A DNA stretch of 64,000 bases, from NCBI RefSeq assembly GCF_001677475.2, contig NZ_CP015229.1. One strand, 5' to 3'. This document shows positions 2,453 through 37,645 of the stretch, in pieces. The stretch comes from Escherichia coli. GTDB taxonomy: Bacteria > Pseudomonadota > Gammaproteobacteria > Enterobacterales > Enterobacteriaceae. A program made the translations under genes and the position numbers. The notes under the pieces are model-generated. The model saw nothing but the letters and a program-made list of their open reading frames with translations, ran no database searches and had not been told where the DNA came from. Position 1 is the first letter of the stretch, and every line of letters begins with the position of its first letter.

Positions 2453-3016
2453 ATGGAACGTTGCGGCTGGGTGAGTCAGGACCCGCTTTATATTGCCTAC
2501 CATGATAATGAATGGGGCGTGCCTGAAACTGACAGTAAAAAACTGTTCGAAATGATCTGCCTTGAAGGGCAGCAGGCTGGGTTATCGTGGATCACCGTCC
2601 TCAAAAAACGCGAAAACTATCGCGCATGCTTTCATCAGTTCGATCCGGTGAAGGTTGCCGCAATGCAGGTAGAGGATGTCGAAAGACTGGTACAGGACGC
2701 CGGGATTATCCGCCATCGCGGGAAAATTCAGGCAATCATTGGTAATGCGCGGGCGTACCTGCAAATGGAACAGAACGGCGAACCGTTTGCCGACTTTGTC
2801 TGGTCGTTTGTAAATCATCAGCCACAGGTGACACAAGCCACAACGTTGAGCGAAATCCCCACATCTACGCCCGCCTCCGACGCCCTATCTAAGGCACTGA
2901 AAAAACGTGGTTTTAAGTTTGTCGGTACCACAATCTGTTACTCCTTTATGCAGGCATGTGGGCTGGTGAATGATCATGTGGTTGGCTGCTGTTGCTATCC
3001 GGGAAATAAACCATGA
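2453..3016 (+). CDS. tag: DNA-3-methyladenine glycosylase I
   Basis: Internal ATG of ORF 2216..3016 gives a 187-aa protein (MERCGWVSQDPLYIAYHDNEWGVPE...) recognised as Tag; the longer upstream extension is not used. Confidence 0.9.
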   Translation: MERCGWVSQDPLYIAYHDNEWGVPETDSKKLFEMICLEGQQAGLSWITVLKKRENYRACFHQFDPVKVAAMQVEDVERLVQDAGIIRHRGKIQAIIGNARAYLQMEQNGEPFADFVWSFVNHQPQVTQATTLSEIPTSTPASDALSKALKKRGFKFVGTTICYSFMQACGLVNDHVVGCCCYPGNKP

Positions 3017-3453
3017 TTCGGGAAGCGCAACGTTCAGAACTCCCCGCGATCCTCGAACTGTGGCTGGAAAGTACAACCTGGGGGCATCCCTTTATAAAAG
3101 CGAATTACTGGCGTGATTGCATTCCGCTGGTGCGGGATGCGTATCTTGCCAATGCGCAAAACTGGGTCTGGGAAGAAGACGGTAAGCTTCTCGGTTTTGT
3201 CAGCATTATGGAAGGCCGATTTCTGGCAGCAATGTTTGTCGCACCGAAGGCCGTCAGACGCGGTATTGGTAAGGCGCTGATGCAATATGTGCAGCAGCGC
3301 CATCCCCATCTGATGCTGGAGGTTTATCAAAAAAATCAACCGGCGATAGATTTTTACCATGCGCAGGGTTTTCACATTGTCGATTGCGCATGGCAGGATG
3401 AAACCCAACTACCCACCTGGATTATGAGCTGGCCGGTGGATCAAACGCTGTAA
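3013..3453 (+). CDS. yiaC: GNAT-family N-acetyltransferase YiaC
   Basis: 146-aa ORF recognised as YiaC; start overlaps the tag stop by 4 nt (ATGA), suggesting translational coupling. Confidence 0.85.
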
Positions 3454-5755
3454 GTGTCAGTTCCGGACCGTTGTATTTTTCCAGCCATGCCAGCGCCGTA
3501 TTACCCGCACAGCCATTCCCCAGCCGCGAGCTGGGGAGATCTTTGGTCAGCACGTTCACTGCGCCGTTTTTACAAATACCGTCAGCGGTTAAATCCAGAT
3601 CCGGCCATGCCCCTTCGTGAATGCAAATCACGCCAGGTTTAATTCCCTCGCTAATGACTGCCCCGGCAAGAATTTGCCCGCGTGCGTTCCACAGCCGAAC
3701 AGTATCGCCATCTTGTATGCCGCGCGCCTGAGCATCGTCAGGATGAATGGTGACAGGCTCACGGTTTGCCACCGCGTACAATTCGCGCAGAGAACTGTAA
3801 TTCAGCTGGCTGTGCAGACGATGTGCCGGATGAGCAGAAAGTACCTGCAACTGTTCCGGTTCGGCATTGCCCTGCCATTCGTCCGGCTCCAGCCACATTG
3901 GATGCCCCGGGCAATCCGGATAAGCGTAATCAGCAATACGCTGCGAGAAGATTTCAATCTTACCACTGGCAGTTTTTAATGGATGCGCCTGCGGATCGCG
4001 GCGAAAATCGGCGAAGCGAATAAACCGCTCGCTGTCTGGGTTTTCCGGCATCTCAATTAACTGGTTGGCTTGCCAGAACTCAGCAAATGGCGGCAATTCA
4101 ACCTGCTGGCTTGCCCCGCGCTGCCGGGCAACGTTATAAAACGTTTCCAGCCATTGCAGCTCACTTTTTCCTTCCGTAAACCGCGCATAGCCGCCCTTCT
4201 CCCAACGTTCACTCAACTCGGCAAAGACATCAAAATCATTACGCGCTTCATAACGTGGCGGCACCACTTGTTTCATCAGCACCAGATGCTGATTGCTGTA
4301 ATCGCCGGTCATGGTGAGATCATTACGCTCAAACGAGGTGGTCGCAGGCAGAACGATATCCGCGTGTTTCGCCGCCGCCGTCCAGAAGCATTCAGAGATC
4401 ACCACCAGCTCCGGTTTTTGCCAGGCACGGATCAGGCGATTGGTATCCTGATGATGAGTAAAGTTGGCACCGCCCGCCCACCAGATAAAACGAATATCCG
4501 GGAAATGTCGGTCCATACCGTTATGTTGATATGCGCCACCGGGGTTTTCCAGTGCTTCAACAATGCGGGCAACAGGGATTTTATCCACCGCATCGGTGCC
4601 GCCAGGCAAGCTGCCCTGCATGGAAGAGAGCACCGCAGCGCGGCGAGTGGGGTTACCACCATTGGCAAAATGGTAAGAAAGTCCAAAACCGCCGCCGGGT
4701 GTGCCGATTTGCCCCAACATTGCCGCCAGCGTGACGATCATCCAGTGTTTTTGCTCACCAAACTGTTGGCGCTGCATTCCCCAGCCAGCCATCAGCATGG
4801 TAGTATTTTGATGGAAAAGAGCCGCCAGTTCGCGGATTTTCGCTGCGCCAACACCACAAATCCCTGCCGCCCATTCGGCGGTTTTCGCTATTCCGTCGCT
4901 CTCGCCCAGCAAATAAGAGGCGAAAACGTCATAACCTGTGGTGCAACGCGTCAGAAACGCTTCGTCGTGCCAGCCATTTTCCACCAGCGTATGGGCGATC
5001 CCTAGCATCAGCGCAACATCGGTGCCCATGTGCGGTGCCACCCACTCCATTTTATCGCCAAAGAAATCGACGGTTTCCGATCGCATTGGATCAATGCAGA
5101 TCAGCTTTTTCCCGCTGTCACGCAGTGCGGAAAAGTAAGAAAGCCCCTGCTCATCAGATGCATTCCACGCAATTTTCAGCGTATTGAGTGGGTTAGCACT
5201 CCACAACACCACGACATCGCTATGTTCCAGCACCAGCGGCCAACTGGTTTGCTGCTGATAGACTTCGCTGCCCCCCACGACATATGGCATGATCGCCTGT
5301 GCCGCGCCGGTCGAATAATCCCCCAGATGCCCGGTATAACCGCCTGCCAGCGCCATATAGCGTTGTAATAATGTCGAGGCCTTATGCAGCACGCCGTTTG
5401 AACGCCAGCCGTAGGAACCAGCAAAAATCGATGCCGGACCATAAGCCTCACGAATACGTTTATGTTGTTGGTGAATAAGCTCCAGCGCCTCATCCCAACT
5501 CACACGAACAAATTCATCCTGCCCACGAATGCCTTGCGGGTTTTCCGGTGACGCGAGAAAGCCTTTGCGCACCATTGGAAATCGTACCCGCGTATTGCTG
5601 TGAACCTGGTCGCGAACCGCGCTCTGCAAGGAATTTTCCATTCCTGTGGCTAACGCGCCACGTGAGCTAAACACGGTTTCGCCGTCAGTTTCAACCAGCA
5701 TGGGCCCCCAGTGGGCGGCAGTCAGAACGGAATATCGTGAGGATGAGTTGGCCAA
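3422..5755 (-). CDS. bisC: Biotin sulfoxide reductase (molybdopterin oxidoreductase)
   Basis: 777-aa ORF recognised as BisC ([26 protein letters not shown]...); 3' end overlaps the 3' end of yiaC by 32 nt, convergently. Confidence 0.9.
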
Positions 5756-6670: not shown

Positions 6671-7645
6671 ATGAAGCCGTCCGTTATCCTCTACAAAGCC
6701 TTACCTGATGATTTACTGCAACGCCTGCAAGAGCATTTCACCGTTCACCAGGTGGCAAACCTCAGCCCACAAACCGTCGATCAAAATGCAGCAATTTTTG
6801 CAGAAGCTGAAGGTTTACTGGGTTCAAACGAGAATGTAGATGCCGCATTGCTGGAAAAAATGCCGAAACTGCGTGCCACATCAACGATCTCCGTCGGCTA
6901 TGACAATTTTGATGTCGATGCGCTTACCGCCCGAAAAATTCTGCTGATGCACACGCCAACCGTATTAACAGAAACCGTCGCCGATACGCTGATGGCGCTG
7001 GTGTTGTCTACCGCTCGTCGGGTTGTGGAGGTAGCTGAACGGGTAAAAGCAGGCGAATGGACCGCGAGCATAGGCCCGGACTGGTACGGCACTGACGTTC
7101 ACCATAAAACACTGGGCATTGTCGGGATGGGACGGATCGGCATGGCGCTGGCACAACGTGCGCACTTTGGCTTCAACATGCCCATCCTCTATAACGCGCG
7201 CCGCCACCATAAAGAAGCAGAAGAACGCTTCAACGCCCGCTACTGCGATTTGGATACTCTGTTACAAGAGTCAGATTTCGTTTGCCTGATCCTGCCGTTA
7301 ACTGATGAGACGCATCATCTGTTTGGCGCAGAACAATTCGCCAAAATGAAATCCTCCGCCATTTTCATTAATGCCGGACGTGGCCCGGTGGTTGATGAAA
7401 ATGCACTGATTGCTGCATTGCAGAAAGGGGAAATTCACGCCGCCGGGCTGGATGTTTTCGAACAAGAGCCACTGTCCGAAGATTCGCCGTTGCTCTCAAT
7501 GACCAACGTCGTCGCAGTACCGCATATTGGATCTGCCACTCATGAGACGCGTTATGGCATGGCCGCCTGTGCCGTGGATAATTTGATTGATGCGTTACAA
7601 GGAAAGGTTGAGAAGAACTGTGTGAATCCGCACGTCGCGGACTAA
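6671..7645 (+). CDS. ghrB: Glyoxylate/hydroxypyruvate reductase B (2-ketoaldonate reductase)
   Basis: Internal ATG at 6671 gives 324 aa ([14 protein letters not shown]...); D-isomer 2-hydroxyacid dehydrogenase pattern with NAD-binding GxGxxG (GIVGMGRIG). Confidence 0.9.
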
Positions 7646-7694
7646 GCCGCGACTGCGTGGAGTAAAGCCCGATAATCGCTCGGGCTTTTACTCT

Positions 7695-8405
7695 TTATTG
7701 GGTTGCAGTAACTGCTGTAGTCCAGGCCTGATTAAACGCCTGATGCTGTGCCGGTAATGGCGCAATCAGTTTGTTATATTCACTTGCCTGTTGTGACGTC
7801 GGGAACTGGATGCCATTTGCTACAAAGCTCACCTGAGTACCTTGCTGAGCAATGTAGTCTCCAACCATCACCAGTTGTTGCGTGAAAGTTTGTGCCGCCG
7901 GAATCAACGGTTGCAATGCATCAGCTGGTGTCGTTACCACTTTGGTGAATGCCTGATCAAAGACCGGTTTCAAATCATCGGTCTGTTTTAGCGCAGAGTG
8001 CGCAGCATCGGCCTGCAACTTCGCATTTTGCAGTTGTTGCGCCAGCACACCTAGCGAACCGTTCATTTCACGCAGCGGACCGCTTTGCGTAACGTAATCC
8101 TGCGGTACGCGAATTGCGTTAACGCTGTCTACGACCGGGCGCAGACCGGAATCCATCGCCTGATTCACCTGCTGAGAATAACCATACAGAATCGCGTAAT
8201 CAGAGACAAAAGGACCAAACTGTTTTTTCTGATCGGCAGTCAGGGTTGGTAGACGTTCGCCGCTACGCATCACTGTATTCTGCAGGAAGTCGATAAACGC
8301 TTTACGCTGATCGCCTTCTTTATCAAAACACCCACTCAGGCTAACTACCATTAATAACGCCGCAAGAGGCGCAAACCAGCGAGAGCAGGACTTTCCTGTC
8401 GCCAT
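7695..8405 (-). CDS. yiaF: Putative inner-membrane lipoprotein YiaF
   Basis: Start placed at internal ATG 8405 (MATGKSCSRWFAPLAALLMVVSLSGC...), 236 aa with lipobox LSGC; the upstream ORF extension is not used. Confidence 0.8.
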   Translation of the reverse strand: MATGKSCSRWFAPLAALLMVVSLSGCFDKEGDQRKAFIDFLQNTVMRSGERLPTLTADQKKQFGPFVSDYAILYGYSQQVNQAMDSGLRPVVDSVNAIRVPQDYVTQSGPLREMNGSLGVLAQQLQNAKLQADAAHSALKQTDDLKPVFDQAFTKVVTTPADALQPLIPAAQTFTQQLVMVGDYIAQQGTQVSFVANGIQFPTSQQASEYNKLIAPLPAQHQAFNQAWTTAVTATQ

Positions 8406-9242: not shown

Positions 9243-9250
9243 GCACATCA

Positions 9251-9409
9251 ACGGTTTGACGTACAGACCATTAAAGCAGTGTAGTAAGGCAAGTCCCTTC
9301 AAGAGTTATCGTTGATACCCCTCGTAGTGCACATTCCTTTAACGCTTCAAAATCTGTAAAGCACGCCATATCGCCGAAAGGCACACTTAATTATTAAAGG
9401 TAATACACT
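9251..9409 (+). promoter_or_regulatory. cspA: cspA long 5'UTR (cold-box, RNA thermosensor leader)
   Basis: Leader begins ACGGTTTGACGTACAGACC, containing the cold-box-like TGACGTACAGA at 9256..9266, and runs about 159 nt to the ATG; the cspA leader is an established cold-responsive RNA element. Confidence 0.75.
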
Positions 9410-9622
9410 ATGTCCGGTAAAATGACTGGTATCGTAAAATGGTTCAACGCTGACAAAGGCTTCGGCTTCATCACTCCTGACGATGGCTCTAAAGACGTGT
9501 TCGTACACTTCTCTGCTATCCAGAACGATGGTTACAAATCTCTGGACGAAGGTCAGAAAGTGTCCTTCACCATCGAAAGCGGCGCTAAAGGCCCGGCAGC
9601 TGGTAACGTAACCAGCCTGTAA
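9410..9622 (+). CDS. cspA: Major cold-shock protein CspA
   Basis: 70-aa [41 protein letters not shown]...; RNP1 motif KGFGFI and RNP2-like VFVHF. Confidence 0.97.
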
Positions 9623-9650
9623 TCTCTGCTTAAAAGCACAGAATCTAAGA

Positions 9651-9678
9651 TCCCTGCCATTTGGCGGGGATTTTTTTA
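9651..9678 (+). terminator. Rho-independent terminator of cspA
   Basis: Stem TCCCTGCC / GGCGGGGA followed by T-run TTTTTTTATT at 9671..9680. Confidence 0.8.
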
Positions 9679-9809: not shown

Positions 9810-9962
9810 TTACTCTTTTAAATTGCAGGCTAAAAATGCCGCCAGCTCATAACTCCCCTGTTTAATATGCAATTCACACAGTGAATCTCTTATCATCCAG
9901 GTGAAAAATAAAAGCGTGAAACAAATCACTATTAAAGAAAGCAATCTATATTTCTGCGGCAT
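9810..9962 (-). CDS. hokA: Hok-family type I toxin (small membrane peptide), HokA-like
   Basis: 50-aa product MPQKYRLLSLIVICFTLLFFTWMIRDSLCELHIKQGSYELAAFLACNLKE: single transmembrane helix plus conserved Cys, characteristic of Hok/Gef peptides. The same frame extends upstream to an ATG at 10022 (70 codons). No IS element interrupts the locus. Confidence 0.8.
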   Translation of the reverse strand: MPQKYRLLSLIVICFTLLFFTWMIRDSLCELHIKQGSYELAAFLACNLKE

Positions 9963-10284
9963 TCCCAGCCCCCTGTGTTGATTTCCAACGAGTAAGAGGC
10001 TAACCTTATGGTGTCTATGCATAGAGGGGCCTCACTTTGATTTATAGTCAGGTGGGGCTTTTCTCTGTCTGCCTTTCGGTGAATACCTGAGACAAACAGT
10101 CTCAAGCACCCGTGGCTATTCTAGCTTAATAAGTTTGTTTCTTCTCCTTGATATAATCCTAAAAAAATCTCATAAAATTAATATATGAGATAATCTTTAT
10201 TCAGCAGAAGATTATTAAAGGTTGCTGTATTATTTAGCGATAAAAAAAGCCTGCCAGATGGCAGGCTTTTTAATAACGGCGTTA

Positions 10285-28929: not shown

Positions 28930-29028
28930 GCCTGATGCGCTACGCTTATCAGGCCTACATGATTTCTGCAATATATTGAATTTGGTAGAATTTGTAGGCC
29001 GGATAAGGCGTTTTAGCCGCATCCGGCA
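28930..29028. repeat. BIME: pair of inverted REP elements
   Basis: GCCTGATGCGCTACGCTTATCAGGCCTAC (28930..28958) and GTAGGCCGGATAAGGCGTTTTAGCCGCATCCGGCA (28994..29028). Confidence 0.85.
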
Positions 29029-30833: not shown

Positions 30834-32234
30834 ATGACCTCTACACCGATTACTACCGCTGATATCGCTAAAGGTAAAATTGACGATGCGTTATCTGTAC
30901 GGGAAAAAATAGGCTACGGCCTGGGTGACGCAGGCGGCACCGTAATAACTTGCCTGATCATGAATTTTCTCACCTTTTTCTACACCGACGTTTTTGGATT
31001 AACTCCGGCGCTGGTTGGCACGCTGTTTATTGCACTGCGCGTGTTTGATGCCATCTCCGACCCGGTGATGGGCGTCATTGCCGACCGGACGCAAAGTCGC
31101 TGGGGGCGCTTTCGCCCGTGGCAGCTATGGATTGCCATTCCCATCGGCATTATCGGCATCCTGACGTTCACCGTGCCAGATGCCAGCATGGGAGTAAAAA
31201 TCGCCTGGGCGTTCGGTACTTACCTGCTCCTTTCAGTCGGTTATACCGCCATCAACGTACCGTACTGCGCGCTGATCAACACCATGACCACCCGCCACAA
31301 TGAAGTGATCTCCTGCCAGTCCTGGCGATTCGTTCTCTGTGGCGTAGCGGGATTTCTGGTTTCGGTAGGCTTACCGTGGATGGTAGATCTCTTCGGTCAG
31401 GGTAATGCCGCGCGCGGCTATCAATTGGGCGTCGGCGTGCTGTGCGCCATTGCCGTGGTGATGTTCCTGTGCTGTTTTTTCTGGGTTCGTGAACGGGTGC
31501 CACTCTCCACAATGGGGAAATTTACCCTGCGCGAACATCTTGCCGGGCTGCGGAACAACGACCAACTGCTGCTGATGCTGGTCATGTCTTTCCTGCTGAT
31601 TAACGTCTTTAACATTCGCGGCGGTGGGTATATGTACTTCATTACCTACGTCTTACAAGGCAGTACGGGCTACACGTCGCTGTTCTTCACCATGGTCACC
31701 TTCGCCTCCATTATCGGCTCGGTGATTGTCAGCCCGTTAACGCGGCGTTTCGATACCGTCAAAATTTACTACTACACCAACCTGCTCCTCGCTGCGCTGG
31801 CGGTGTTGATGTGGTTCCTGCCCTCCGGCCCGGCTTATCAAACGCTGTGGCTGGCGGTGATCCTCGGTAATGGCGTAATTCTTGGCTTCACATTGCCACT
31901 GCACTTCTCATTGATGGCCTTTGCCGATGACTACGGCGAGTGGAAAACCCGCGTACGTTCTTCCGGCATGAACTTCGCCTTCAATCTGTTTTTCATCAAG
32001 CTGGCCTGGGCCTCCAGCGCCGGGATCATCAGCCTGCTGTTTATTTTTGTCGCCTACCAGCCTGGCGTGGAAAACCAGACCGCCAGTTCGCTTGGCGGGA
32101 TCGCGGCGATGGAAACATTACTGCCTGCGCTATTCCACCTGCTGCTGGCAGGGGCGATCCGCTTTTGCAAACTCAATAATCCTATGATGTCACGCATAGC
32201 TACCGACCTGCGTCAGCGTCATGTACAGCCTTAA
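30834..32234 (+). CDS. GPH-family (glycoside-pentoside-hexuronide) cation symporter, MelB/YicJ-like
   Basis: 466 aa, about 12 transmembrane helices; GPH hallmark [25 protein letters not shown]; GAGGA Shine-Dalgarno 8 nt upstream of the ATG. Confidence 0.85.
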
Positions 32235-32244
32235 GGAGCACAAG

Positions 32245-34215
32245 ATGAACATTTCGGAAGTCGATCTGCATAAACTGACGGTCAGCGATCCGTTCCTCGG
32301 TCAGTACCAACAACTGGTCCGCGACGTGGTGATTCCTTATCAGTGGGATGCCTTGAACGATCGTATCCCAGAAGCGGAACCCAGCCATGCGATTGAAAAC
32401 TTTCGCATTGCCGCCGGACTTCAGGAGGGTGAATTTTACGGGATGGTGTTTCAGGACAGCGACGTCGCCAAATGGCTGGAAGCGGTAGCCTGGTCGCTGT
32501 GCCAGAAGCCGGACGCCGAACTGGAAAAAACCGCCGACGAGGTAATCGAACTGATCGCCTCCGCCCAATGCGAAGACGGCTATCTCAATACTTACTTTAC
32601 GGTAAAAGTACCCGAAGAACGCTGGAGCAATCTGGCGGAGTGTCATGAACTTTACTGCGCCGGTCATCTGATTGAAGCCGGAGTCGCCTTCTTCCAGGCC
32701 ACGGGCAAGCGGCGCTTGCTGGAAGTGGTTTGCCGTCTGGCCGATCATATCGACAGCGTATTTGGTCCAGATGAAAGTAAGTTACACGGTTACCCTGGTC
32801 ACCCGGAAATTGAACTGGCACTGATGCGTCTGTATGAAGTGACCGAAGAGCCGCGCTACCTGGCACTGACGAACTATTTTGTCGAACAGCGTGGTGCGCA
32901 ACCGCACTATTACGACCAGGAATATGAAAAGCGCGGGCAGACCTCGCACTGGCACACCTACGGCCCGGCGTGGATGGTGAAAGATAAAGCCTACAGCCAG
33001 GCGCATTTGCCCATCGCACAGCAACAAACCGCCATCGGACATGCAGTACGCTTTGTCTATCTGATGACCGGCGTCGCGCATCTCGCGCGTTTAAGTCACG
33101 ATGACAGCAAGCGTCAGGACTGCCTGCGGCTGTGGAACAATATGGCCCAGCGTCAGTTATATATTACCGGCGGCATTGGCTCGCAAAGCAGCGGCGAAGC
33201 GTTCACTAGCGATTACGATCTGCCGAATGACACGGTATACGCTGAAAGTTGCGCCTCCATCGGCCTGATGATGTTTGCCCGACGAATGCTGGAAATGGAA
33301 GGCGACAGTCAATATGCCGATGTGATGGAGCGCGCACTGTACAACACCGTGCTCGGCGGCATGGCGCTGGATGGCAAACATTTCTTCTATGTGAATCCGC
33401 TGGAAGTACATCCAAAATCGCTGAAATTCAACCATATCTACGATCACGTTAAACCGATCCGCCAGCGTTGGTTTGGCTGCGCTTGTTGTCCGCCAAATAT
33501 CGCCCGCGTGCTGACCTCGATTGGTCATTATCTCTACACGCCGCGTGAAGATGCGTTGTATATCAACATATACGCAGGAAACAGCATGGAAGTGCCGGTA
33601 GAAAATGGCACGCTGCGCCTGCGGGTTAGCGGGAACTATCCGTGGCAGGAGCAGGTGACGATTGCGGTTGAATCGCCCCAGCCGGTACGTCATACGCTGG
33701 CTTTACGTCTGCCGGACTGGTGCACACAGCCGCAGATCATATTGAATGGGGAAGAGGTCGAGCAGGATATTCGTAAAGGGTATTTGCACATTACCCGCGA
33801 ATGGCAGGAGGGCGATACGCTGAATCTGACTTTGCCGATGCCGGTACGCCGCGTTTACGGTAACCCGCTGGTGCGTCACGTCGCCGGAAAAGTGGCGATT
33901 CAGCGCGGCCCGCTGGTGTATTGCCTGGAACAGGCCGACAACGGCGAGTCACTGCATAATCTGTGGCTGCCCACCGATGCGCCATTTACGACATTTGAAG
34001 GCAAGGGATTGTTTAGCCATAAGATCTTAATCCAGGCACCGGGTTACCGGTATGAACAGAGCAATCCAGAGCAGCAACCGCTGTGGCATTACGACAGCGC
34101 GCCAGCCAAACGCCAGACGCAAACTCTGACCTTTATCCCGTGGTTTAGCTGGGCCAACCGGGGTGAAGGCGAAATGCGGATCTGGGTGAATGAGGAAAAG
34201 CATTGCCATCCGTAG
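32245..34215 (+). CDS. Glycoside hydrolase family 127 (DUF1680, beta-L-arabinofuranosidase-like) protein
   Basis: Start at ATG 32245 (AAGGAG Shine-Dalgarno at 32233..32238), 656 aa. Motifs E-S-C (YAESCASIG) and C-A-C-C-P-P-N (WFGCACCPPNIARVL) match what I recall of the Zn/Cys catalytic centre of GH127 enzymes. Immediately follows the GPH symporter. Confidence 0.75.
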   Translation: MNISEVDLHKLTVSDPFLGQYQQLVRDVVIPYQWDALNDRIPEAEPSHAIENFRIAAGLQEGEFYGMVFQDSDVAKWLEAVAWSLCQKPDAELEKTADEVIELIASAQCEDGYLNTYFTVKVPEERWSNLAECHELYCAGHLIEAGVAFFQATGKRRLLEVVCRLADHIDSVFGPDESKLHGYPGHPEIELALMRLYEVTEEPRYLALTNYFVEQRGAQPHYYDQEYEKRGQTSHWHTYGPAWMVKDKAYSQAHLPIAQQQTAIGHAVRFVYLMTGVAHLARLSHDDSKRQDCLRLWNNMAQRQLYITGGIGSQSSGEAFTSDYDLPNDTVYAESCASIGLMMFARRMLEMEGDSQYADVMERALYNTVLGGMALDGKHFFYVNPLEVHPKSLKFNHIYDHVKPIRQRWFGCACCPPNIARVLTSIGHYLYTPREDALYINIYAGNSMEVPVENGTLRLRVSGNYPWQEQVTIAVESPQPVRHTLALRLPDWCTQPQIILNGEEVEQDIRKGYLHITREWQEGDTLNLTLPMPVRRVYGNPLVRHVAGKVAIQRGPLVYCLEQADNGESLHNLWLPTDAPFTTFEGKGLFSHKILIQAPGYRYEQSNPEQQPLWHYDSAPAKRQTQTLTFIPWFSWANRGEGEMRIWVNEEKHCHP

Positions 34216-35208: not shown

Positions 35209-36183
35209 ATGACAAAATTACAACTTAAGTACCGGGAGTTAAAAATTATCTCGGTAATCGCTGCCAGTGAAAATATCAGCCATGCCGCGACTGTACTTGG
35301 CATCGCACAGGCCAACGTCAGCAAATATCTTGCTGATTTTGAATCAAAAGTAGGTTTAAAAGTCTTTGACCGAACCACCCGGCAACTGATGCTCACACCT
35401 TTTGGTACCGCGCTGTTGCCATACATCAATGACATGCTGGACAGAAACGAGCAGCTTAATAATTTTATTGCAGATTATAAGCATGAGAAACGTGGTCGGG
35501 TCACTATCTATGCACCAACCGGCATAATTACCTATTTATCCAAACATGTAATCGATAAAATTAAAGATATCGGTGATATCACCTTATCGCTAAAAACCTG
35601 CAATCTTGAGCGTAATGCCTTTTATGAAGGCGTCGAATTTCCCGATGATTGTGATGTTTTAATCAGCTACGCTCCACCAAAAGATGAATCGCTGGTTGCC
35701 AGTTTTATTACGCAATATGTCGTAACCGCTTATGCCAGCCAGCGCTATCTTGAGAAACATCACATTAGCCGTCCTGACGAACTCGAACATCACTCCTGTA
35801 TTTTGATCGACTCAATGATGATCGACGACGCGAATATCTGGCGCTTCAACGTCTCCGGGAGTAAAGAGGTGCGGGATTATCGTGTGAAGGGAAATTACGT
35901 TTGCGACAACACGCAATCGGCGCTGGAGCTGGCACGAAATCACCTGGGGATTGTGTTTGCGCCAGACAAAAGTGTGCAGAGCGATCTGCAAGACGGCACG
36001 CTGGTGCCCTGCTTTCAGCACCCGTATGAATGGTGGCTGGATCTGGTGGCTATCTTCCGTAAACGGGAATACCAGCCCTGGCGGGTCCAGTATGTGCTGG
36101 ATGAAATGCTGCGTGAAATTCGCCACCAGCTTGCTCAGTCGCAGCAACTGCGGCCTGAACAAGCGGCGGAAAGCGAAGATTAA
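35209..36183 (+). CDS. yiaU: LysR-family transcriptional regulator YiaU
   Basis: 324 aa; N-terminal LysR HTH (...[37 protein letters not shown]). Confidence 0.85.
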
Positions 36184-37316
36184 TGATCGAGATAAAGGTA
36201 ATGCACCCAGCTGGTCATGCGTAATAACACTTTGCGCATCACCGAGACATGGCTGAAATGATCGGAGTAGACCGCCACCTGGGCGTAAATACCGTCTGGT
36301 AAAGCGCTCAAATCAGTATGCTCATCCAGTTCAATGGTCGCGATAACGCCATCTGAACCCGGCGCTGTGTTTAACGTCTGTAAGGTACCGGTCGACTGAT
36401 AAGCTCCACCGGGAACAGCTGGACTAATGGCTGCCAGCTTACCGCTGAATACCTTACCTGGCAGAGCATTAAACACCACTTCCGCATCGTCACCAGGAGC
36501 CAGTCGCAGCAAGGAGTTCTGACGGAACTGCGCCACGATTTGTCGTTTCTGATCGGGTATAAACACCATCACCGGACGTAGCGGCAGCGACGCGGCATAG
36601 GTACCCGGACGAATCAGGACCTGGGCCACGTAACCATCGCTCGGCGCACGCACTATCGTCTGCTCAAGGTTATATTTTGCTTCCGCGAGCTGCGCTTTCA
36701 GGCTGGCGATTAGAGAATGTTCACCCAACACCAGGCTATCCAGCTGGCTCTGGACCTGTTTTTGTTCCGCCGCCGATGACTTTACGGAGGCTTCCTGCGC
36801 CAGATAATTTTGCCGCGCCACATCAATATCGCGTTCTGAAAACGGGTTTACTTTCGCCTGGCTGCCGCGTGCGTAACGCTGATACTCTTTAGCGAATTTA
36901 TCCCGCGTGGCCTTTGCCTGCTGAGTATTCGCCGCCATCTCATCTAACTCTGCGCCCAACGCCCGCTGTTTATGTTCTGCGGTAACGATATCCGCCATCA
37001 GCCGATCCACCCGCGCCTGATAACGCGTCGGGTCCAGTCGAAAAAGCACCTCGCCTTTTTTAATCAGCGTATTTTTCTTATCCGTCACTTCAATCACCAC
37101 GCCTGTCACCTGTGGGACAACAGGGATGGAAATAACCGCTTTTTGCGCTTTAAAGGTATACGGATGGTTATAGTTCATTAACAGAATTAAACCGCTGACA
37201 ATAAATATTCCCCCCAGGGCCGCTGTGGGAATGGTCCATTTATTTACAGGAATTTTGAAGATCTTAAACATTGCCCATGCGAAAGCCACATAGGTCAAGA
37301 TAATCAGTAAATCCAT
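36180..37316 (-). CDS. yiaV: HlyD-family membrane-fusion-type protein YiaV (no adjacent transporter)
   Basis: 378 aa; N-terminal transmembrane helix, long coiled-coil middle, C-terminal beta domain. Roughly three-quarters identical (by eye) to the ORF at 45242..46378 (yibH). 3' end overlaps yiaU by 4 nt, convergently. Confidence 0.85.
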
Positions 37317-37321
37317 AAGTA

Positions 37322-37645
37322 TTACTCGGCAGAAGAGGATTTGATGTCGGCGAGCTGTTTCTCCAGCCCGGCAATACGCTGTTGTAGTTGCACAACGGAG
37401 GAGTCATGGTTTTGCATTCCCCATCCCCGCTCCGGGCGGTAAAGCGTGGCCCAAATCCACAAAAATGGCCAGATAACATGCAGCGTAAAAAGACTCACCC
37501 AACCAGCGACATGAATGGCGTCGGCATGAGGATGATTACGTTTTTTAGCAATCAGGTAGGGAATATCATGTAAAATAATAATCCCATAGAATATCACCAG
37601 AAATACAAAAATAAGCACTCCCAGTGCAAAATAATCCAGGAACAT
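37322..37645 (-). CDS. yiaW: Small inner-membrane protein YiaW (DUF3302-type, two transmembrane helices plus C-terminal coiled coil)
   Basis: Start at ATG 37645 ([45 protein letters not shown]...), 107 aa, Shine-Dalgarno GAGGGA; stop lies 5 nt from the yiaV start; paralog of yibI. Confidence 0.8.

Follow-up and report, generated by a model that had tools for sequence, protein, structure and literature searches.

The window analysed here is a stretch of 64,000 nucleotides of Escherichia coli DNA (contig NZ_CP015229.1 of RefSeq assembly GCF_001677475.2), in which two pairs of genes meet tail to tail and share bases at their 3' ends. The genes at the two junctions and the overlaps between them are given below by window position, with the basis of each assignment in brackets.

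2453..3016, + strand: tag, 3-methyladenine DNA glycosylase I (intact translation; coordinates transferred from K-12 and SCU-171)
3013..3453, + strand: yiaC, GNAT lysine acetyltransferase/lactylase, 146 aa (open reading frame, translation, Pfam GNAT, RefSeq)
3422..5755, − strand: bisC, biotin sulfoxide reductase, 777 aa (open reading frame, Pfam Molybdopterin and Molydop_binding, RefSeq)
3422..3453, both strands: tail-to-tail CDS overlap of yiaC and bisC, 32 bp (phase 123:132)
35209..36183, + strand: yiaU (LpsR), LysR-type regulator, 324 aa, with a tail of variable length (open reading frame, Pfam, RefSeq)
36180..37316, − strand: yiaV, HlyD-family membrane fusion protein, 378 aa (open reading frame, Pfam, RefSeq)
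36180..36183, both strands: overlap of yiaU and yiaV, 4 bp, TTAA (the two stops share this palindrome; phase 123:213)
37322..37645, − strand: yiaW, DUF3302 (intact translation; annotated in AR_0077 and K-12)

The original prediction had placed a 32-bp overlap between yiaC and bisC and a 4-bp overlap between yiaU and yiaV at these positions, and both the open reading frame list and a direct reading of the sequence confirmed them. Both are pairs of convergent genes that share bases through their opposite-strand stops. The 32 bp encode (I)MSWPVDQTL and a stop codon on the yiaC strand and (L)TAFDPPASS and a stop codon on the bisC strand, and the tetranucleotide at the other junction is read as TAA at 36181-36183 on the + strand and as TAA at 36182-36180 on the − strand. 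Each junction has a further gene behind one of the partners: tag lies upstream of yiaC on the same strand, with its stop overlapping the yiaC start (ATGA, 3013..3016), and yiaW precedes yiaV on its strand, with 5 bp between yiaW and the start of yiaV. The RefSeq records of strains SCU-171 and AR_0077 give gene names and overlaps identical to those of the window, and RefSeq K-12 MG1655 annotates identical overlaps for yiaC (3713652..3714092) with bisC (3714061..3716394) and for yiaU (3751992..3752966) with yiaV (3752963..3754099). The same ends were found in every RefSeq record inspected (three by coordinates), with both genes at the junction among the rows listed. Both overlaps are therefore already known as part of the standard annotation, and the transcript overlap has been catalogued as well.

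To judge the coding ends themselves, we looked at the four proteins. All of them carry Pfam domains (YiaC, BisC, YiaU and YiaV), the GNAT domain spanning residues 12-123 of YiaC, and the shared codons lie beyond the domain models, which end at residue 123 of 146 in YiaC, 741 of 777 in BisC, 302 of 324 in YiaU and 367 of 378 in YiaV. YiaC has been studied experimentally as a lysine acetyltransferase and lactylase (PMC6199490, PMC9636275), and YiaU is the regulator LpsR (PMC9068703). The last residues of BisC align with the extreme C-terminus of the solved DMSO/TMAO reductases 1EU1, 1DMR and 7L5I, which end 2-4 residues past the aligned stretch, implying that the bisC stop is at the ancestral position of the family. 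YiaC is 146-148 aa long in all 27 aligned orthologs. In its AlphaFold model (with the same 27 orthologs), the mean pLDDT is 94.5, the last beta-strand covers residues 133-141 and the pLDDT falls to ~60 for residues 141-146; the alignment shows no variation at P134, T135, W136, M138 and W140 and a variable tail, which is 2 aa longer in some genera. The yiaC and bisC frames are kept to their stop codons in the 13 sequences compared, and we regard the partners as real protein-coding genes.

To estimate how long an overlap should be by chance, we took the 42 annotated K-12 CDS of this region as a null model and followed the opposite-strand frame that enters the 3' end of each gene to its first stop. 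The median run to the first antisense stop was 59 nt; the run was at least 32 nt in 63% of the cases, and in the matching phase it was exactly 4 nt for 31% of the genes. For the four genes at our junctions in their actual phases, the predicted first-stop values are exactly 32 and 4 nt. Junctions with no spacer are a minority, comprising two of the eight convergent pairs in a 49-kb K-12 stretch, and the unusual feature is the missing spacer, not the lengths of the overlaps. A genome-wide survey found 58 convergent overlaps in E. coli, with the tetramers TTAA, CTAA, CTAG and TTAG as the modal class, and with phase 123:132 the commonest (49%) among overlaps of at least 5 nt; convergent overlaps fit a stop-codon-mutation model, and a rho-independent terminator was present in only 20% of the genes of the convergent overlaps in E. 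coli (Lillo & Krakauer 2007, PMC2174442). Both overlaps in the window fall in the commonest length and phase classes.

The yiaC/bisC junction is nearly universal in the species. A 1-kb probe across it matched 5422 of 5426 complete genomes, the best matches being 99% identical, and 5420 of the 5426 E. coli genomes contain the junction itself. The search of genome contigs with yiaC peptide patterns returned five Escherichia loci only, the patterns being strict, and the other sequences were obtained through protein homologs and contig look-ups. Among the 13 sequences compared, the overlap is exactly 32 bp in 12, including E. albertii, E. whittamii, three cryptic or divergent Escherichia lineages, Salmonella enterica, Citrobacter amalonaticus, Enterobacter ludwigii, a Raoultella-like contig and the Enterobacteriaceae isolate C23F, and it is 38 bp in Kosakonia. 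The YiaC proteins of the non-Escherichia taxa are only 57-66% identical to that of the window, and the retention of one length across genera at such identity could reflect selection on the overlap itself.

The pattern of substitution within the 32 bp points to another source of this conservation. The BisC tail, LTAFDPPA(S/N)(S/P/A) followed by the stop, is almost invariant, with D replaced by E in K-12 and Escherichia sp. MOD1. That of YiaC is variable, nearly all of its differences being at codon position 2, which lies opposite the wobble base of bisC. We compared site classes in all sequences but that of isolate C23F (12 of 13) and found variable yiaC wobble sites at one of nine positions in the overlap vs 45 of 50 in the flanks (Fisher p 4.8e-6), and variable bisC wobble sites at five of nine in the overlap vs 55 of 59 in the flanks (Fisher p 0.008). 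From this site-class pattern, it follows that the constraint on the BisC protein dominates the overlap. The substitutions fit dual coding in which the BisC C-terminus would be fixed and the YiaC tail would drift with synonymous changes in bisC. The constraint also runs in the other direction: the conserved W-I-M-x-W of YiaC lies opposite the variable last two residues and stop of BisC, and the conserved LTAFDPP of BisC lies opposite the variable residues 141-146 of YiaC, so that the invariant W136, M138 and W140 restrict the last codons of bisC. Because each variable tail overlies the constrained element of its partner, the conservation of the junction DNA is explained without any function at the RNA level. 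The position of the YiaC end may be a partial exception. In 12 of the 13 sequences, BisC has CTT or CTC as the Leu codon facing the yiaC stop, and either of them keeps that stop; in Kosakonia the codon is CTG, and YiaC extends by another 6 nt, up to the preceding Leu-Thr. E. coli prefers CTG for Leu, and the use of CTT/CTC despite this preference hints at selection on where YiaC ends.

The yiaU/yiaV overlap behaves differently. Of 5426 E. coli genomes, just 3779 contain its region. The orthologs of YiaU are 311 to 329 aa long and lose their similarity past a conserved ...ILDEML.EIR.QL.Q segment, the tail varying in both length and sequence. The TTAA overlap is kept in C. freundii; in C. braakii it is lost, with a 48-bp spacer between yiaU and yiaV. 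Enterobacter cloacae has no yiaVW, and there yiaU forms a CTAG overlap with aldB; Kluyvera has a 31-bp spacer containing a GC hairpin and a T run after yiaU, followed by a TonB-dependent receptor; and Serratia has a 328-bp spacer downstream of yiaU. The 4-bp overlap is thus lineage-specific and unconserved, and such overlaps form and dissolve readily, even with other partners. Conservation across the Enterobacteriaceae, which the original prediction had named as a check, therefore holds for yiaC/bisC, with its 12 of 13 sequences at 32 bp, and fails for yiaU/yiaV, with its loss in C. braakii and its new partner in Enterobacter.

We then looked for intrinsic terminators at the junctions. A consensus scan around yiaC/bisC gave six terminator-like sites vs 5.5 in shuffled sequences, which is no enrichment, and the nearest such site ends in the tail ATCTTTGG, which is not a proper T tract; the − strand offers no more than a 4-bp stem ahead of a T7 run. 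The first ~120 nt after each stop gave folds no more stable than those of shuffled sequences (z = -0.88 and -0.45). Around yiaU/yiaV, the nearest terminator-like sites are ~190 nt (− strand) and ~560 nt (+ strand) away, and both are weak. A GC-rich stem-loop followed by a U tract was found within ~100 nt of the stop at neither junction, and an Rfam scan of the whole window gave no match at either. We rejected an intrinsic terminator placed inside the partner's coding sequence, given the absence of enrichment at yiaC/bisC and of a convincing site near either junction. One hairpin-forming element does lie close to yiaC/bisC, and no comparable one was found at yiaU/yiaV:

3518..3536, either transcript: palindrome CCCCAGC-CGCGA-GCTGGGG, inside bisC, 65 nt past the yiaC stop

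This palindrome has a perfect 7-bp stem that folds in both strands at about -20 kcal/mol, and it lies 94 nt upstream of the bisC stop, within translated bisC. It does not vary among the Escherichia sequences and is also strong in Enterobacter; it is degraded with no compensatory changes in Salmonella, the Raoultella-like contig and Kosakonia, where the encoded LPSS(R/K)LGNG is unchanged. We rejected it as a conserved bidirectional element on the ground of this uncompensated decay in three genera; the palindrome is probably incidental to the P-S-S-R-L-G codons.

Published data point to Rho instead. Adams et al. 2021 (PMC7815308) performed DirectRNA-seq with and without bicyclomycin and scored 800-nt windows, so that the resolution is low. 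Their Supplementary file 2 places one region of Rho termination downstream of each + strand gene:

~3600..3800, + strand: Rho termination region of tag-yiaC read-through, antisense to bisC
~36700..36900, + strand: Rho termination region of yiaU read-through, antisense to yiaV

The peak of the first is at MG1655 3714344 (+), about window position 3705 and 252 nt past the yiaC stop, with a Rho score of 7.30 (p = 5.5e-14); the peak of the second is at MG1655 3753583 (+), about window position 36800 and 617 nt past the yiaU stop, with a Rho score of 4.98 (p = 1.9e-8) (PMC7815308). The + strand reads upstream of them are low, at 90 and 40 per 800 nt, respectively (PMC7815308 Supplementary file 2). 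In the window, the GC skew of the + strand is -0.09 to -0.26 (C>G) over 3450-3700, as expected upstream of a Rho site, and it is weaker on the yiaU side, at about 0 to -0.19 over 36200-36800. A weak hairpin with a T run lies on the + strand at 36739..36754, just upstream of the Rho peak on the yiaU side. No Term-seq 3' ends of yiaC, bisC, yiaU or yiaV appear in Supplementary files 1 and 3 of the same study, which also lists no Rho region on the − strand within tag, yiaC, yiaU or yiaT. On the + strand, the published sensitivity to bicyclomycin, the untranslated RNA and the C>G skew together indicate Rho-dependent 3' termination. Termination on this strand rests on published data, whereas for the − strand (bisC and yiaWV) we infer that Rho acts in the same way. 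The original prediction had argued that the overlapping ends leave no room for separate terminators. This is correct for intergenic hairpins, but it ignores Rho, for which untranslated RNA beyond the stop is sufficient.

The transcripts of both pairs are known to overlap. ExcludonFinder (NAR 2025, PMC12288877 Table 1) includes both yiaC-bisC and yiaU-yiaV in its set of 165 convergent excludons of MG1655, which are defined by RNA-seq coverage that overlaps in at least 50% of 58 transcriptomes. Because there is no intergenic DNA, each mRNA carries sequence complementary to its partner, and by anatomy the transcripts overlap by at least 32 nt at yiaC/bisC and at least 4 nt at yiaU/yiaV. That transcription of one gene must extend into the antisense of the other, as had been proposed, is thus supported, by the RNA-seq catalogue for both pairs (PMC12288877) and by the + strand transcription that runs 250-620 nt into the partner before Rho ends it (PMC7815308). 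The proposal went on to mutual antisense or interference regulation. Its antisense premise is right, but nothing in the evidence calls for the regulatory step, and crosstalk is no more than possible.

The best of the alternatives makes regulation the reason for the overlaps. Under this reading, the two junctions are functional excludons whose overlaps have been selected, with tag-yiaC and bisC, and likewise yiaU and yiaWV, repressing each other through polymerase collision and/or cleavage of the 3' RNA duplex by RNase III, so that expression of one would exclude that of the other. Membership of both pairs in the MG1655 'excludome' (PMC12288877) and the documented read-through into the partner gene (PMC7815308) are consistent with it, as is the conservation of the yiaC/bisC overlap across the Enterobacteriaceae, although that 32-bp conservation follows the expectation from dual coding, and close relatives have lost the 4-bp overlap or formed one with another gene. 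Higher synteny and reduced single-cell co-expression are reported for excludon pairs (ExcludonFinder, PMC12288877), but this evidence describes the class as a whole. The pair mscL/arfA provides a demonstrated precedent in E. coli (PMC10070815), and validation of double-stranded RNA with p19 was not feasible for convergent excludons in this species. The low read counts given above (90 and 40 per 800 nt) imply that two convergent polymerases should rarely be present simultaneously. Furthermore, the partners have no evident functional link: YiaU is reported to target yiaT, the waa operon and adeP but not yiaV, and the RNA-seq paper on the yiaU knockout does not mention yiaV. The comparison of the palindrome, the folding and the Rfam scan found no conserved RNA structure at the junctions. 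Taken together, we consider selection for mutual repression unlikely. A narrower form of the idea is more doubtful still, namely that the yiaC/bisC interlock alone was selected as a true excludon that makes tag-yiaC (alkylation repair, lysine acylation) and bisC (biotin/methionine sulfoxide repair) exclusive through Rho-limited antisense RNA and RNase III.

The palindrome at 3518..3536 raises a second alternative, a collision-driven bidirectional terminator of the type described by Ju et al. 2019, in which the hairpin would pause both polymerases and set both transcript ends independently of Rho. This model needs a hairpin in the overlapping region, and the palindrome is a candidate near the junction, with a perfect stem that folds in both strands and does not vary within Escherichia. 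However, the + strand read-through is sensitive to bicyclomycin and thus Rho-dependent, whereas the class is defined as Rho-independent; the published bicyclomycin data, with + strand Rho scores of 7.30 and 4.98, speak against Rho-independent termination. The hairpin also lies inside translated bisC, where a stop would truncate the bisC mRNA, its stem shows the uncompensated decay in three genera described above, and both the regional fold (z -0.88) and the number of terminator-like sites match those of shuffled sequences. We therefore regard a collision terminator at this site as highly improbable. That an overlap is an annotation artefact, the true coding end of one partner lying elsewhere, has next to no chance of being correct and was rejected: no supporting point was found, reading frames fix stop codons, which unlike starts cannot be re-annotated, the frames are conserved in 13 sequences, the BisC end matches its solved homologs and the 27 YiaC orthologs are 146-148 aa long, so that the overlap also withstands the different or shorter true stop by which, according to the original prediction, it could have been removed.

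In our view, both overlaps are probably passive by-products of convergent genes abutting with no spacer, in which dual coding is tolerated and Rho ends the read-through. A loosely constrained C-terminal tail, that of yiaC or yiaU, would read into the 3' end of its neighbour up to the first in-frame stop. For yiaU, the first stop met would be the palindrome TTAA, which holds the stop of yiaV as well; for yiaC, it would be the TAA opposite the Leu-Thr codons of the final strand of BisC. The BisC end would have been fixed as the ancestral C-terminus of the DMSO-reductase family, and the last residues of YiaC would follow the wobble changes of bisC. Because each variable tail overlies the constrained element of its partner, the yiaC/bisC interlock would be tolerated and hard to undo. 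Past the stop codon, where the ribosome dissociates, the RNA is untranslated and antisense to the partner, and Rho would terminate it a few hundred nucleotides further on. The 3' ends of the mRNAs would then be complementary along the 32 or 4 shared bases at the least, and probably for hundreds of bases. Such complementarity may permit cleavage by RNase III or collisions between polymerases, the effect of which, at low expression, is probably small.

As a discovery, the two overlaps carry little weight: they are in the standard annotation, their transcript overlap is catalogued, and their length and phase classes are the textbook ones. The added value of our analysis is modest and comparative. 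The yiaC/bisC overlap is an old one and offers a clean, small example of dual coding freezing a junction. If regulatory coupling were demonstrated at either junction, it would be one more case in the class exemplified by mscL/arfA. In practice, deletions of bisC or yiaV must spare the shared bases, as in the engineered strain BE104.

Finally, we compared the two junctions with known systems. The pair mscL/arfA (PMC10070815) is like them in being convergent, with overlap of the 3' UTR and the 3' CDS, conserved co-location and 3' antisense complementarity; it differs in that antisense regulation and RNase III processing have been demonstrated experimentally there, whereas the pairs of the window are known from sequence and transcript overlap. 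Listing in the excludome (PMC12288877) documents transcript overlap only, whereas here the coding sequences overlap, not only the UTRs. The collision terminators of Ju et al. 2019 and of Wang et al. (preprint 10.1101/2022.10.23.513370), resemble yiaC/bisC in that two convergent genes have a palindrome able to form a hairpin close to where they meet; these terminators lie between genes and are Rho-independent, whereas here there is no intergenic DNA, the + strand is Rho-sensitive and the hairpin is unconserved across genera. The Rho sites of Adams et al. 2021 (PMC7815308) are a closer match, since the + strand read-through of yiaC and yiaU lies in bicyclomycin-sensitive regions of their 'antisense' class, with a C>G skew upstream on the yiaC side; the differences here are that the − strand ends are undetected and that the resolution, with 800-nt windows, is low. 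The closest match is the set of convergent overlaps of Lillo & Krakauer 2007 (PMC2174442). As there, yiaU/yiaV has a permitted tetramer, TTAA, yiaC/bisC exceeds 4 nt and has phase 123:132, the origin fits stop-codon mutation and extension, and intrinsic terminators are mostly absent (from ~80% of the genes in that set). Nothing essential differs from that set, and what yiaC/bisC adds to it is a length of 32 bp kept across several genera of the Enterobacteriaceae, in 12 of 13 sequences.

The convergent neighbour of yiaU is not the same throughout the family. In Enterobacter cloacae, which lacks yiaV-yiaW, yiaU converges instead on aldB, and the two genes share the 4-bp palindrome CTAG (3463..3466 of the comparison locus, L016). 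This yiaU/aldB overlap is of the same type as the yiaU/yiaV overlap and arose independently.

On the other side of yiaC, the junction with tag, the co-directional gene 5' of it, also takes more than one form:

Window 3013..3016, co-directional tag/yiaC overlap of 4 bp (ATGA), tag of 187 aa, in the window and in annotated E. coli

Longer tag calls with a wider yiaC overlap also occur: 193 aa and 23 bp for Salmonella, Citrobacter, Enterobacter, the Raoultella-like contig and isolate C23F, and 192 aa and 20 bp for Kosakonia. The loss of bisC in E. coli BE104 (NZ_CP040643.1) is an engineered deletion, and the FRT scar GAAGTTCCTATTCTCTAGAAAGTATAGGAACTTC that stands in its place (L019, the BE104 locus, 3075..3170) begins 8 nt past the yiaC stop. 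The last ~13 bisC codons are retained in this strain, so that yiaC is intact.

When two 1-kb probes from the window were compared with 5426 complete E. coli genomes, the best identity was only 98.5-99.0% and most of the genomes fell in the 95-99% band, suggesting that the lineage of the window has no close representative in this set. The window also holds an ORF upstream of yiaT and three RNA families matched at the Rfam gathering score:

Window 32221..34215, + strand, ORF of 664 aa, whose counterpart in strain AR_0077 is annotated as 'glycoside hydrolase family 127'
Window 9250..9677, + strand, cspA thermoregulator (Rfam)
Window 9960..10111, - strand, sok antitoxin RNA, full-length (model positions 1-157 of 157; Rfam)
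Window 28951..28993, - strand, ES036 sRNA (Rfam)

At the position of the 664-aa ORF, K-12 has only the pseudogene remnants ysaC/ysaD. The window appears to carry an uninterrupted hokA/sokA locus, because its sok match is full-length whereas the sokA locus of K-12 is a pseudogene adjoining an IS150 insertion.

Two further convergent pairs lie in the K-12 MG1655 stretch (L003). ghrB and yiaF are separated by a 49-bp spacer (L003 9265..9335, corresponding to about 7625..7695 of the window), yet in the Term-seq data a strong 3' end of the - strand lies at MG1655 3718264, 20 nt within ghrB. Convergent transcripts thus need no overlap of the coding sequences in order to overlap. The small-protein genes ysaE and hokA form a third convergent coding overlap of the stretch (24 bp; L003 11401..11601), which the earlier note does not include, and this pair is also in the ExcludonFinder list of catalogued MG1655 convergent pairs with overlapping transcripts (PMC12288877).
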